Made by a program: the position numbers and the translations under genes. From positions 8,265 through 72,264 of the forward strand of contig JAGWBX010000024.1 in assembly GCA_021295655.1 (NCBI GenBank): a stretch of 64,000 nucleotides of DNA, read 5' to 3'. Below the pieces are notes generated by a model. The model was not told the origin of the DNA and did not search any database. It saw only the letters and a program-made list of their open reading frames with translations. Below, one piece after another: positions 1,829 to 60,367 of the stretch (position 1 is the stretch's first letter; the number at the start of each line of letters is the position of its first letter). This DNA is from Candidatus Latescibacterota bacterium (GTDB lineage Bacteria > Latescibacterota > UBA2968 > GCA-2709665).

Positions 1829-2659
1829 GTGAACGATTCCAATGAAATGAAGACATTGGCCGGCGAACCGGTCCGGCCGCTGGGCCTTGCCGGCGCCCCC
1901 GACTCGCAAAGCGAATTTGCATCCGTCGCTCACGGGTCCGGGGTGAATTTCTTTTTCTTTTATGGCCTGCACTTTGACGGAATGGTGGACGGCGTGAACC
2001 GGCTGTTGCGTCAGCGTCGGGACGAGGTCTTCGTCGCCACCGGGACGGAGTCCCGCGATCCGTCTCAGATGCGGGACTATCTGGACGCTGTGCGCAGGGC
2101 GCTGGACGTGGATACGATTGACCTGTTCTTCGCCGAGTACGTGTCGCCTGCGGACAATATTCAGGACGTACTGGGAAAGGGCGGCGCGATCGACCAAATC
2201 TGGAAGTGGAAGAACGATGGCAACGTACGCTACGTGGGCGCAACCGCGCATAGCCGTCCGATTTCGCTGACCCTTATCGGGAGCGGACGGATCCAGGTGC
2301 TGATGCACCGGTACAATATGGCGCACCGGAAGTCGGAGCGGGAGGTGTTGCCCGCGGCCATCGACGCCGGCGTACCCGTGGTCGCGTTCACCTGTACGCG
2401 CTGGGGATCGCTGCTTGAGGGACACGCCGATTGGCCGGGACAGACGCCCACCGCGGCGGATTGTTATCGGTTTGTTCTGAGGCACCCCGCCGTCCGACTG
2501 GCGTTGACCGCGCCGGCAACGGAAAACCAGCTACGACGAAATCTCACGGTACTGACGGAGCCACGCGAACCGCCCCTGGAAGAGATGTCCACCTGGAAGG
2601 CATACGGCGACCTGGTCTATGGTGATGGCGCCGATGCATTTGAAACCCGTTGGCCTTAA
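1829..2659 (+). CDS. aldo/keto reductase-like oxidoreductase
   Basis: 276 aa with 'IDLFFAEYV' and 'VRYVGATAHS' AKR-like blocks. The TAA stop at 2657-2659 abuts repeat R1-A. Confidence 0.6.
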   Translation: MNDSNEMKTLAGEPVRPLGLAGAPDSQSEFASVAHGSGVNFFFFYGLHFDGMVDGVNRLLRQRRDEVFVATGTESRDPSQMRDYLDAVRRALDVDTIDLFFAEYVSPADNIQDVLGKGGAIDQIWKWKNDGNVRYVGATAHSRPISLTLIGSGRIQVLMHRYNMAHRKSEREVLPAAIDAGVPVVAFTCTRWGSLLEGHADWPGQTPTAADCYRFVLRHPAVRLALTAPATENQLRRNLTVLTEPREPPLEEMSTWKAYGDLVYGDGADAFETRWP

Positions 2660-2804
2660 CAGTCCGTTGATAAAGTCGCTCTGCAGGCGAGGCCGAGTCA
2701 TTGTGGCCGTAGACAAGGCGCGCGACCGCGTCGAATCGCGCAGTAATACGGCCACAGGGGCCGGACGTAGCCCGGATGGACTTTTTCAACGGGCTGTTAA
2801 GGCC
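2652..2804 (+). repeat. R1-A: full-length hairpin element (26-nt arms, 2 mismatches)
   Basis: The left arm ggccttaaCAGTCCGTTGATAAAGTC (2652-2677) pairs with the right arm GACTTTTTCAACGGGCTGttaaggcc (2779-2804). There are nested inner stems: tgtggccgta/tacggccaca and gcgcga/tcgcgc. Confidence 0.75.
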
Positions 2805-8081: not shown

Positions 8082-9005
8082 ATGGCTCAGTCCGTTGAGA
8101 GTGGTCCGGTAGCGGCGGCAACGACCAATCAGACGATGCAGTTGCCCCATCGGGTGTTGGGAAAAACCGGTGTGCGGGTACCCGTTCTTGGCTACGGTTC
8201 GGCCCCGGGCGGAATCGGCATGGATGACAATGAGGCTGTTTCGCTGTGCCACATGGCGATCGACCACGGCGTGACGTTCATCGATACTGCGCCAGGTTAC
8301 GGCCGGGCGCATCTTCAACTCGGCCAGGTCATGGCCAGCCGCAGGGACGAAGTTTTTCTGGTCACCAAGACGCCGGCCGACGATGCGGACGAGGCGCTCT
8401 CGATGTTGGAGAAAGGCCTGAGAGACCTGCAGACCGACCACGTCGACCTGGTCTACGTGCATTCGATGGGCAATCGGGACGTGGACAGGGTGCTGGCATC
8501 CGATGGCGCGCTCGAAGGCCTTCGGGAAGCGCGGCGGCGAGGCTGGACCCGGTTTATCGGAGTGACGGCGCACAACGCGCCCTGGCGCACGGCCCGGGTA
8601 TTGCAGGAAGCGGATATCGACGTGGTGATGCTTGCGATGAACATCGCTGACAGATATACGTACAACTTTGAGAACGAAGTACTCCCACTCGCCCGTGAAC
8701 AGAACGTTGGCGTGGCGGCCATGAAGGTTTACGGAGGGGCGTTGGGCATGAAATACGACAAGCCGGCGCTTTCGGCCCTGGCCGCGCACGGGCCCCACGA
8801 TCATGAAGCGGCGCTGCGTTACGCGCTGGGGCTTCCCGGGGTCGGTACGGCGGTTGTGGGGGTGTTTTCCGAGTCCGAACTGGTGCAGAACGTGGAATGG
8901 GCGCGGCGGATCAGGCCGCTGGATGGGGTGGACAGCCTCGCTGCGGAGCGCGTCGGGCGGAAGGTGGCGGCAGACTGGGGGCCGCATTACGGGGCGGTGG
9001 AATAG
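8082..9005 (+). CDS. aldo/keto reductase
   Basis: 'LGKTGVRVPVLGYG', 'IDTAPGYG' and 'HVDLVYVHS' match the AKR family. The true start may be ATG 8136, because 8088-8100 carries an R1 left-arm fragment. Confidence 0.8.
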   Translation: MAQSVESGPVAAATTNQTMQLPHRVLGKTGVRVPVLGYGSAPGGIGMDDNEAVSLCHMAIDHGVTFIDTAPGYGRAHLQLGQVMASRRDEVFLVTKTPADDADEALSMLEKGLRDLQTDHVDLVYVHSMGNRDVDRVLASDGALEGLREARRRGWTRFIGVTAHNAPWRTARVLQEADIDVVMLAMNIADRYTYNFENEVLPLAREQNVGVAAMKVYGGALGMKYDKPALSALAAHGPHDHEAALRYALGLPGVGTAVVGVFSESELVQNVEWARRIRPLDGVDSLAAERVGRKVAADWGPHYGAVE

Positions 9006-15344: not shown

Positions 15345-15425
15345 AGAACACTGGCAGCCCGTTGTAAACGCCCGTCCGGGCTTTGGCCGGTCTTGCCTGC
15401 CAAGCGACATTATCAACGGACACTA
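15345..15425 (-). repeat. R1-E: hairpin element in the 5' leader of the lectin-like/ABC operon
   Basis: The minus strand reads TAGtgtccgttgataatgtcgcttggcaggcaagaccggccaaagcccggacgggcgtttacaacgggctgccagtgttct. Confidence 0.6.
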
Positions 15426-31040: not shown

Positions 31041-31114
31041 CAGTCCGTTGATAAAGTTGCTCTGCCCGCAGGCCGAAGGCCGGATGGGCGCTTCCAACGG
31101 GCTGCAAGTGTTCT
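31041..31114 (+). repeat. R1-C: short hairpin form of R1
   Basis: Starts directly after the gerW-like TAG and reads CAGTCCGTTGATAAAGttgctctgcccgcaggccgaaggccggatgggcgCTTCCAACGGGCTGcaagtgttct. Confidence 0.65.
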
Positions 31115-31192
31115 TTCCCATAAACAGGTTGCCTGAATTCGGCGGACGAGTGGTGAGATATTTATGGGACAGGACACAAGGCCAGGGCTGCA

Positions 31193-34593: not shown

Positions 34594-34662
34594 CGTCCCG
34601 TTGAGAAAGTCCATCCGGGCTGCGGCCGGCCCTGCCTGCAGAGCGACTCTATCAACGGAATG
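34594..34662 (-). repeat. R1-F: short hairpin form between the nuoB paralog and nfuA
   Basis: The minus strand reads cattCCGTTGATAGAGTCGCTCTGCAGGCagggccggccgcAGCCCGGATGGACTTTCTCAACGGgacg. Confidence 0.65.
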
Positions 34663-39482: not shown

Positions 39483-39498
39483 CTTATTCAACGGACTG
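39483..39498 (-). repeat. R1-G: left-arm half copy in the sufC-sufD spacer
   Basis: The minus strand reads TGA(sufC stop)-CAGTCCGTTGAATAAG-GAGGTAGCCGCTTC-ATG(sufD). Confidence 0.4.
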
Positions 39499-53595: not shown

Positions 53596-53634
53596 ATGAC
53601 TTCCCCGGGTTCAGGGATAGAGACGGGCCGTCCG

Positions 53635-54623: not shown

Positions 54624-54780
54624 GCAACCCGTTGAAAAAGCTCAACCGGGCTGCCTGCCTGTGCGGTGCACGCAGACAGGCGGCCGGCTCGCGTGGCCGA
54701 ATGACTTCGTTGCGCTCCCTCGCCGAATCCAACAGGTCGACTCGGTCTCGCCTGTGGAGCGACTTTACCAACGGACTACT
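54624..54780 (-). repeat. R1-D: full-length hairpin element in a 5' leader
   Basis: The minus strand reads tAGTCCGTTGGTAAAGTCGCTCcaCAGGCGAGaCCGAGTC...(about 90 nt)...AGCCCGGttGaGCTTTTTCAACGGGtTGC, ending 20 nt before the TTG start. Confidence 0.65.
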
Positions 54781-57262: not shown

Positions 57263-58327
<1,065 letters not shown>

Positions 58328-58383
58328 TCATCCGCCTGTCTGCGTGCGTGAGATAGCACGCACAGGCAGGCCGATTTATTCCG

Positions 58384-58860
58384 TCAGGCGAACGTCGCCT
58401 TCAGTCGTTTCTCAACCGCCGGCGGCACGAAAGCGGTCACATCGCCTCCAAAACGCGCGATTTCCCGAACAAGCGTGGAGTTGAGATAGGCATATTGCAG
58501 ACTGGGCATCAGATAGAGGACTTCCAACCGGGGTTCCATCTGACGGTTGGCAACCGCCATTGCAATTTCCAGTTCGTATTCCGTCGTTGTGCGCAGACTG
58601 CGTACAACGGTGAAGACGCCGCTCTTTCTGGCAAAGTCAACGAGCAATCCACTGTACTTCGTGACTTCCACGTTGGGACAGTTTGACGAGACTTCCTGAA
58701 TCATGCGTACACGTTCATCTGGCGGGAACAGAGGGCGTTTCTCAGGATTCAGGCCCACGGCGACGATCAGCCGGCTGCAGATCTTCGCCGTTCGTTCGAT
58801 CAGGTCCAGATGGCCGAATGTCACAGGATCGAAGGTGCCGGGATAGATCGCCGCGTTCAT
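58384..58860 (-). CDS. coaD: phosphopantetheine adenylyltransferase
   Basis: 'AIYPGTFDPVTFGHLDLIER' and 'RSLRTTTEYE' are present. Confidence 0.9.
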   Translation of the reverse strand: MNAAIYPGTFDPVTFGHLDLIERTAKICSRLIVAVGLNPEKRPLFPPDERVRMIQEVSSNCPNVEVTKYSGLLVDFARKSGVFTVVRSLRTTTEYELEIAMAVANRQMEPRLEVLYLMPSLQYAYLNSTLVREIARFGGDVTAFVPPAVEKRLKATFA

Positions 58861-60234: not shown

Positions 60235-60268
60235 CAGTCCGTTGATAAAGTCGCTCTGCAGGCGAGGC
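60235..60268 (+). repeat. R1-B: left-arm half copy (34/34 identical to R1-A)
   Basis: Reads CAGTCCGTTGATAAAGTCGCTCTGCAGGCGAGGC with no right arm nearby. It is the only copy antisense to the flanking genes. Confidence 0.6.
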
Positions 60269-60313
60269 ATGGTGTCCCCTCCCGGAAAAAACGAATCAAG
60301 GTTAAATCGCCTT

Positions 60314-60367
60314 TATCTGCTTGCATATATTCGGTTTTACTTCCCCGAAGAATCACGAATCAAGGTT
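60314..60367. repeat. R2 copy 2
   Basis: Reads tatctgCTTGCATATATTCGGTTTTACTTCCCCGAAGAATcaCGAATCAAGGTT. Its last 13 nt (ACGAATCAAGGTT) are also present at 60291-60303. Confidence 0.6.

Follow-up and report, generated by a model that had tools for sequence, protein, structure and literature searches.

A dispersed hairpin repeat of Candidatus Latescibacterota with the features of a recently active family of miniature inverted-repeat transposable elements

Results

R1 copies in the 64-kb window

R1 is a dispersed hairpin element present in several copies in a 64,000-nt stretch of DNA from a Candidatus Latescibacterota bacterium (assembly GCA_021295655.1, contig JAGWBX010000024.1, positions 8,265 to 72,264), which is referred to as the window. 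It very probably represents a family of miniature inverted-repeat transposable elements (MITEs), that is, short, non-coding, non-autonomous DNA transposons, which uses YTAR as its target, duplicates 4 bp and has been active recently. Its inverted repeats, 4-bp duplication, empty sites, copy number and random orientation, as well as full-length insertion sequences with the same ends, were all observed directly. The family is represented in the window by the full copies A, C, D, E and F and by the left-arm fragments B and I (7 in 64 kb), whose coordinates were refined with an nhmmer profile, made from 60 canonical copies found elsewhere, and with a covariance model that detected A, F, C, D and E. 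Each full copy forms a long hairpin that spans the element from one end to the other.

Copy A (2660-2796, + strand; nhmmer E = 1.4e-37; covariance model 137 bits) is 137 bp long and corresponds to a 23-nt internal-deletion variant of a 160-bp canonical form, with a fold energy of -77.2 kcal/mol (z = -7.1). The TTAA of its target-site duplication is found at 2656-2659 and again at 2797-2800, and the TAA stop of an aldo/keto reductase gene sits inside the left TTAA. Copy C (31041-31104, + strand) is a short form of 64 bp in which the two arms are retained with nearly no interior; it was detected by nhmmer (E = 4.7e-4 for the left arm and 4.4e-3 for the right arm) and by the covariance model, is flanked by CTAG and CAAG, and starts directly 3' of the TAG stop of a YtfJ/GerW-like gene.

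The other three full copies are on the minus strand. Copy D (54625-54778; nhmmer 54626-54777, E = 4e-20; covariance model 38 bits) is of full length, diverged, and contains an extra small palindrome, CCTGTCTGCGTGC..GCACAGGCAGG. A sigma-70-like promoter match (54833-54806, 11/12) was found upstream of it and a gene beyond it, so copy D would belong to the 5' leader of that downstream gene. Copy E (15355-15423; nhmmer 15355-15421, E = 5.9e-4 for the left arm and 6.9e-4 for the right arm; also matched by the covariance model), a short diverged form of 69 bp, lies immediately 3' of another such promoter match (15455-15427, 10/12) and is followed by a small gene and then by ATP-binding cassette (ABC) transporter genes. 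Given these strong promoter matches just upstream, both D and E would be transcribed. Copy F (34594-34662), also a short form of 69 bp, gave 62 bits with the covariance model (E = 5e-11) and was matched by nhmmer at 34597-34662 (E = 1.6e-7 for the right arm and 3.2e-5 for the left arm); according to Pfam assignments of the flanking genes, it is located between nuoB, whose stop codon is 8 nt upstream, and a NfuA-like gene.

Both left-arm fragments are followed by sequences of R2, a second MITE family described below. In fragment B (60235-60268, + strand; nhmmer 60235-60273, E = 3e-9), which is preceded by TTAA, the 34 nt agree with the family consensus throughout, and the left end of R2 (60270-60289) comes next, as in a 324-bp composite class of R1, the remainder of the composite being missing. 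Among related strains this fragment is fixed and has the same structure, with an equal intergenic length in L119 and L120. Fragment I (58264-58297, + strand; nhmmer 58264-58308, E = 1.3e-3) is a diverged left arm between coaD and obg, with a partial R2 (58298-58408) after it. Short-read assemblies of the same strain (L121 and L122) break inside fragment B, approximately 67 nt upstream of comEA; assemblies usually break at dispersed repeats. A direct repeat, CGAATCAAGGTT, also occurs twice beside fragment B in the sprA-comEA intergenic region (60293-60304 and 60355-60366).

Two further sites, G and H, consist only of the terminal 11-mer CAGTCCGTTGA. G (39488-39498, - strand), for which the profile was not significant, is directly 3' of the TGA stop of sufC and directly before the ribosome-binding site of sufD (AAGGAGG), and H (8088-8098, + strand), not detected by the profile, is at the very start of an open reading frame (ORF; 8082-9005). 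As the 11-mer has 5 occurrences in the window for 0.01 expected by chance, both sites are probably relics of element ends and not chance matches.

A first-pass annotation of the window, made from the sequence, had placed eight full or half copies of this element. The arms were present at the places it gave, and its count holds for the five full copies and for the left arm B, but G and H are mere 11-mers and fragment I had been missed. The 10-mer AGTCCGTTGA, which it counted 5 times, actually occurs 6 times, the additional site being at 58264. It also stated correctly that the left arm comes right after a real stop codon in three cases (TAA of the aldo/keto reductase gene, TAG of the gerW-like gene and TGA of sufC).

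Target-site duplication and empty sites

The copies are flanked by YTAR on both sides, in the form of a 4-bp direct duplication. Among 108 copies, flank position -4 was identical to position +1 in 82 (Fisher p = 7e-10) and position -1 was identical to position +4 in 85 (Fisher p = 5e-13), with 4/4 flank bases matching in 46 copies and 3/4 in 42. The commonest duplications were CTAA (15), TTAG (14) and TTAA (5). Since the outer flank bases co-vary, a duplication restricted to TA is ruled out. With respect to the availability of targets, YTAR is scarce in loci L001-L114 (861 kb), where 1046 free sites were counted (approximately 1.2 per kb), and 43% of these sites are in coding sequence though 85% of the DNA is coding.

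Three metagenome contigs retrieved by an exact match to the protein encoded downstream of A (L115, L116 and L117; sources JGI 3300002734, ENA ERZ23495260 and ERZ15614322) lacked copy A, with flanks 99.0-99.9% identical to those of the window. There, 13 nt separate the reductase gene from the one that follows, and the site reads GGCC-TTAA-GGCC, compared to GGCC-TTAA-[137 bp]-TTAA-GGCC in the window, and when the filled and the empty site were aligned, the two BLAST blocks overlapped by exactly the 4-bp TTAA. The filled allele was also found on another contig, L118 (Logan SRR35761419). Copy A was therefore inserted recently, and conspecific strains are polymorphic for it.

Three further pairs of filled and empty sites were detected between related metagenome-assembled genomes (MAGs), namely L104/L007, L091 versus L062 and L046 versus L026; in the first of them, the element has TTAA on both sides in L104 and a single TTAA is present in the empty L007. 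The empty sites through which the first-pass annotation had suggested that mobility could be recognised were thus found at copy A and in these three pairs. Copy C, on the other hand, is an old insertion, and a genome of approximately 80% identity (L009) has it at the orthologous site too. In the organism from which the window comes, R1 is still active or was so until very recently.

The R1 family across genomes

A scan with a degenerate left-arm pattern through one genome per bacterial species yielded at least 114 loci, at least 109 of which belonged to 13 Latescibacterota-type MAGs, labelled either as Candidatus Latescibacterota, as 'Gemmatimonadota' RHO bins or as a TPA bin. The number of loci per MAG was 1-15 among the matches listed, these counts being lower bounds, and the five remaining loci were chance matches in Firmicutes and Bacteroidales. 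The existence of further copies outside the window, on which the first-pass annotation had made its claim of a repeat family depend, was in this way confirmed.

From these loci and the window, 113 full copies were extracted after de-duplication, with sizes from 57 to 324 bp. Exactly 160 bp, the canonical length, was found in 60 of them, with a mean pairwise identity of 0.915. Discrete deletion classes of 146, 99, 84, 69 and 58 bp keep both ends and have lost interior segments, which upholds the earlier proposal that the arms are conserved, that the interiors vary and that the short copies are deletion derivatives. The 324-bp class is a 160-bp R1 with R2 nested inside. The left end, CAGTCCGTTGATAAAGTC, and the right end, GACTTTTTCAACGGGCTG, form inverted repeats that match at 16/18 positions, and these terminal repeats (CAGTCCGTTGATAAAGTC / reverse complement CAGCCCGTTGAAAAAGTC) are conserved in the 113 copies. 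R1 itself has no coding capacity.

Solo left arms without a nearby right arm (L022, L049, L052, L063 and L083) had no adjoining transposase, only ordinary genes or nested repeats, and no multi-copy ORFs were found among the 114 loci listed, which showed orthologous synteny only. R1 was not found in full-text searches of the literature with the arm sequences or with Latescibacteria and MITE as terms, and Rfam has no record of it either. Bacterial MITEs are a well-known kind of element, of which R1 is a family not described before.

Insertion sequences with the same ends

Metagenomes were scanned for the 18-bp end followed by bases that are absent from the MITE at three positions, and at least 119 loci were obtained. 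Among the matches listed, 20 complete elements of 1432-1530 bp on metagenome contigs carried the same inverted 18-bp ends and a 4-bp duplication, mostly CTAG, and a transposase of approximately 460 aa was encoded beside the end in 27 loci. The DUF772 and DDE_Tnp_1 domains of this protein were both above the Pfam gathering score. A transposase of plasmid pLB1, annotated as 'IS5 family transposase', is approximately 52% identical to it, and the corresponding element is 1457 bp long, with ends CAGGCCGTTGACGAAGTC and the duplication CTAA.

IS5 itself makes a 4-bp YTAR duplication (PMC5009759), as R1 does. R1 encodes nothing, and its ends do not resemble the ends of E. coli IS5 (GGAAGGTGCGAA...). 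The match between the 18-bp ends of R1 and those of the 1.43-1.53 kb transposase-encoding elements points to R1 as the non-autonomous counterpart of an insertion-sequence group that is IS5/IS1182-like, and its mobilisation in these particular genomes may depend on a transposase of this type.

In loci L124-L242, from very different metagenomes, the 18-bp end CAGCCCGTTGAAAAAGTC was found joined to many unrelated interiors, which included full-length insertion sequences and several MITE families. Such an association implies a putative large group of insertion sequences whose termini are unusually conserved.

Gene context, orientation and stop codons

A simple codon-usage gene finder was used to place 106 copies between genes. 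Where the flanking genes were co-directional, 41 copies had the same orientation as these genes and 40 the opposite one, and with respect to GC skew the distribution was 51 versus 57. The earlier observation that 7/8 copies in the window share the orientation of the next downstream gene is true for the window, but vanishes in the family sample.

The genes that flank R1 in the window encode, according to Pfam, an aldo/keto reductase, a lipoprotein-like ORF, a YtfJ/GerW-like protein, an ATP-grasp ligase, NfuA, NuoB, a ComEA-like protein and Obg, and the neighbours of R1 have no functional relation to each other. In 39 of the 106 placed copies (37%), the duplication contains the stop codon of the abutting gene.

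Conservation of the hairpin and its strand asymmetry

A T opposite a G, described by the first-pass annotation for all the full copies of the window, was present at position 4/157 in 55/60 canonical copies and is part of a conserved strand asymmetry in folding. The top strand folded better in 60/60 R1 copies (-85.7 versus -71.6 kcal/mol), and the same strand folded better in 18/18 orientable MITEs from four other clusters, which had been oriented by an end motif independent of folding. The consensus of R1 contains 5 G-U pairs and no A-C pair, and departures from Watson-Crick pairing amounted to 26 G-U versus 12 A-C site-events.

Covariation within R1 was weak, with both sides changed in 3/46 pairs, because the copies are too similar. 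In unrelated metagenomes, the covariance model also detected sister families of MITEs, 158-188 bp long, which share the R1 ends and have an overall identity to R1 of approximately 50-60%. When 22 elements of R1 and the sister families were aligned, both sides had changed in 28/46 pairs and 93.7% of the cells were paired, in an alignment that was model-guided and fitted to the structure and that contains related sequences; none of 500 shuffles reached these values and slid controls were far lower.

These data raise the question of whether the MITE also works as the single-stranded hairpin of one strand, either in an element-borne RNA or in a single-stranded DNA intermediate of transposition, with its fold under selection. 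The compensatory changes, the uniform preference for the top strand and the excess of G-U pairs speak for it. However, the copies are oriented at random relative both to genes and to replication skew, which leaves no host process that would see one strand in preference, and no internal promoter was identified. In addition, the families are homologous and the asymmetry may be partly inherited, the pair counts come from an alignment fitted to the structure and covariation inside R1 is weak. We regard this reading as unlikely, though clearly the best placed of the alternatives. The asymmetry may be due to a single-stranded step of transposition, to an element-borne RNA or to inheritance, and since the chromosomal orientation is random, it gives no indication of a role in host transcripts. 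That the whole R1 superfamily, understood as R1 plus the sister families with the 18-bp end, has been selected to fold as the single-stranded hairpin of one defined strand is likewise a tentative proposal, to which we give a rather low probability. If true, it would indicate either a strand-specific single-stranded DNA step in the transposition by the poorly studied IS5/IS1182-like transposase group or a structured RNA encoded by the element, and the element would then be more than a pair of transposase-binding ends that enclose mere filler.

R2 and other repeats

The second MITE family, R2, with ends TGTYCYGTCCCGGAAATA, is represented by a copy at 31109-31176 (- strand), which is inserted in the right-hand target duplication of copy C, with CAAG at 31105-31108 and 31177-31180. 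The ortholog L009 lacks this R2 copy and has a single TTAG instead. R2 also carries 4-bp flanking repeats, and other sites of this family are at 58298-58408 and 60270-60289 in the window, at L107:4830-4986, and in L015, L044 and others. The 324-bp composite of R2 within R1 has itself multiplied, to 8 copies with 95% identity.

A third small palindrome, CCTGTCTGCGTGC...GCACGCACAGGCAGG, is located at 58330-58372 (+ strand), within the partial R2 that follows fragment I, at approximately 54650-54690 (- strand) in copy D, and in L088. It recurs inside other repeats and after the stop of coaD, and may represent either another mobile hairpin or a stem of the terminator type.

In an ortholog of the region around copy D, a solo R1 left arm is present just 3' of the stop of the gene downstream of D (L063:7000-7040), and its counterpart in the window (53596-53625) is only a degenerate remnant (cagggatagagacgggccg).

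Discussion

In the explanation that we favour for R1, a DDE transposase of the IS5/IS1182 type (DUF772 plus DDE_Tnp_1), supplied in trans, would recognise the terminal inverted repeats of approximately 18 bp (CAGTCCGTTGATAAAGTC / CAGCCCGTTGAAAAAGTC) and insert the element at a YTAR tetranucleotide, with duplication of those 4 bp. As every YTAR holds TAA or TAG on each strand, the duplication would regenerate the stop, so an insertion exactly on a stop codon would be harmless and many copies would come to start after a stop. The shorter copies would be derivatives with internal deletions, and the longer ones would carry a second MITE nested inside.

Several observations weigh against this explanation in its simplest form. 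The older copies of the window, D, E and F, no longer have clean duplications. The partner transposase scored 157.7 bits with IS1182 and 83.2 bits with IS5_4, below the respective curated NCBIfam cut-offs of 270 and 140, and a transposase of the partner type was not found in the window or in approximately 1 Mb of Latescibacterota loci; tblastn searches of these loci and the window with InsH of E. coli IS5 and with the ~460-aa transposase likewise gave no match. The interior hairpin has been kept by compensatory changes across the sister families and one strand always folds better, and a plain model of two ends plus filler does not predict such a conserved, asymmetric hairpin. Finally, adjacency to stop codons (37%) exceeds the proportion of stop codons among the free non-coding YTAR sites (13%; p = 3e-10). 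The YTAR target makes insertion at stop codons possible, but the target sequence alone would be insufficient to explain its frequency, to which selection or an extended target preference must add, presumably through selection against other intergenic positions or through an extended, GC-rich target context.

The first-pass annotation had also considered R1 as a functional RNA. R1 would then be a structured RNA that regulates particular genes in cis from their 5' or 3' untranslated regions, as a riboswitch, a leader or an attenuator, and acts on the sense strand, as could be suspected from the great stability of the hairpin, from its non-Watson-Crick pairs, which are G-U on one strand, from the position of D and E directly 3' of strong sigma-70-like promoter matches, and from the 7/8 window copies that point the same way as the next gene. 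We consider it very improbable. The argument from orientation fails because orientation is random over 106 copies, with genes and with GC skew alike, the downstream genes are functionally unrelated, there are 1-15 loci per MAG among the matches listed (lower bounds), and the copies have target-site duplications and are absent from strains with 99% identity. No known RNA family was matched either, as Rfam gave no match for the whole window at gathering scores and, for copy A at E <= 1, gave only a chance-level match to Twister-P5 (E = 0.68). A riboswitch-like or leader function for the family is not supported, in view of the random orientation, the unrelated flanking genes and the Rfam results.

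A MITE of the IS630/Tc1-mariner type, which would duplicate TA only and have variable terminal bases, was suggested by the TA that is central in nearly all the flanks and fits the NTAN target reported for IS630 (PMC5678879). The first-pass annotation had seen a faint hint in this direction, which is not borne out. The left and right flanks co-vary, in the manner of direct repeats, at the bases outside TA (82/108 and 85/108, p <= 7e-10), the duplication being the 4-bp YTAR, and the elements with the same ends encode DUF772 plus DDE_Tnp_1 transposases, of the IS5/IS1182-like DDE kind, and not IS630-type enzymes. There is accordingly very little room for this alternative.

Integron attC sites were also considered and rejected. 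These sites are found at the 3' ends of gene cassettes with the core-site order RYYYAAC ... GTTRRRY, while R1 reads ...GTTGA...TCAAC..., in the opposite order, and its neighbours are housekeeping genes.

Repetitive extragenic palindromes (REPs) and the bacterial interspersed mosaic elements (BIMEs) made from them are 20-40 nt sequences that begin with a GTAG head, have neither terminal inverted repeats nor target duplications, and are tied to REP-associated tyrosine transposases (RAYTs). That R1 is a palindrome of this type, spread by a RAYT (TnpA-REP, an HUH enzyme), is hardly credible, since its likeness to them as an abundant, many-copy, intergenic palindrome, often just after stop codons, is outweighed by its 18-bp terminal inverted repeats, its 4-bp duplication, its canonical length of 160 bp instead of 20-40 bp, the absence of a GTAG head at its start and the DDE, not HUH, transposases encoded by its full-length relatives.

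A closer resemblance is found with the Correia elements of Neisseria and the enterobacterial repetitive intergenic consensus (ERIC) sequences or intergenic repeat units (IRUs) of enterobacteria, which are MITE-like intergenic elements of 100-160 bp that form a long hairpin from end to end, are found in both orientations, exist in size classes with and without internal deletions, and frequently share transcripts with their neighbours. Compared by description only, R1 shares with them the hairpin, the size classes and the presence of both orientations. It differs in sequence, host phylum and target, Correia elements duplicating TA and R1 the 4-bp YTAR. Among the three possibilities offered by the first-pass annotation (REP/BIME, Correia-like or MITE), the inverted repeats, the duplications and the empty sites thus support the MITE and oppose REP/BIME.

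R1, as a MITE, provides a named explanation for a conspicuous repeat in the genomes of an uncultured phylum, whose related records include MAGs deposited as Candidatus Latescibacterota, together with several 'RHO' bins deposited as Gemmatimonadota. It also ties this repeat to insertion sequences that are widespread, have been little characterised as a group and carry very conserved 18-bp ends; a full-length member of this group, if present in Latescibacterota chromosomes, would show as inverted pairs of CAGYCCGTTGAWAAAGTC at a distance of 1.3-1.7 kb. The conserved, strand-asymmetric hairpin raises a question as to the way in which these elements transpose or the use to which they are put, and the YTAR target illustrates how a target preference can turn stop codons into safe landing sites. 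As R1 is polymorphic among strains with 99.0-99.9% identical flanks, it is still moving, and this makes it a source of strain-level variation and of breaks in assemblies; by inserting beside genes, it may also affect its neighbours and bring about changes in gene expression.

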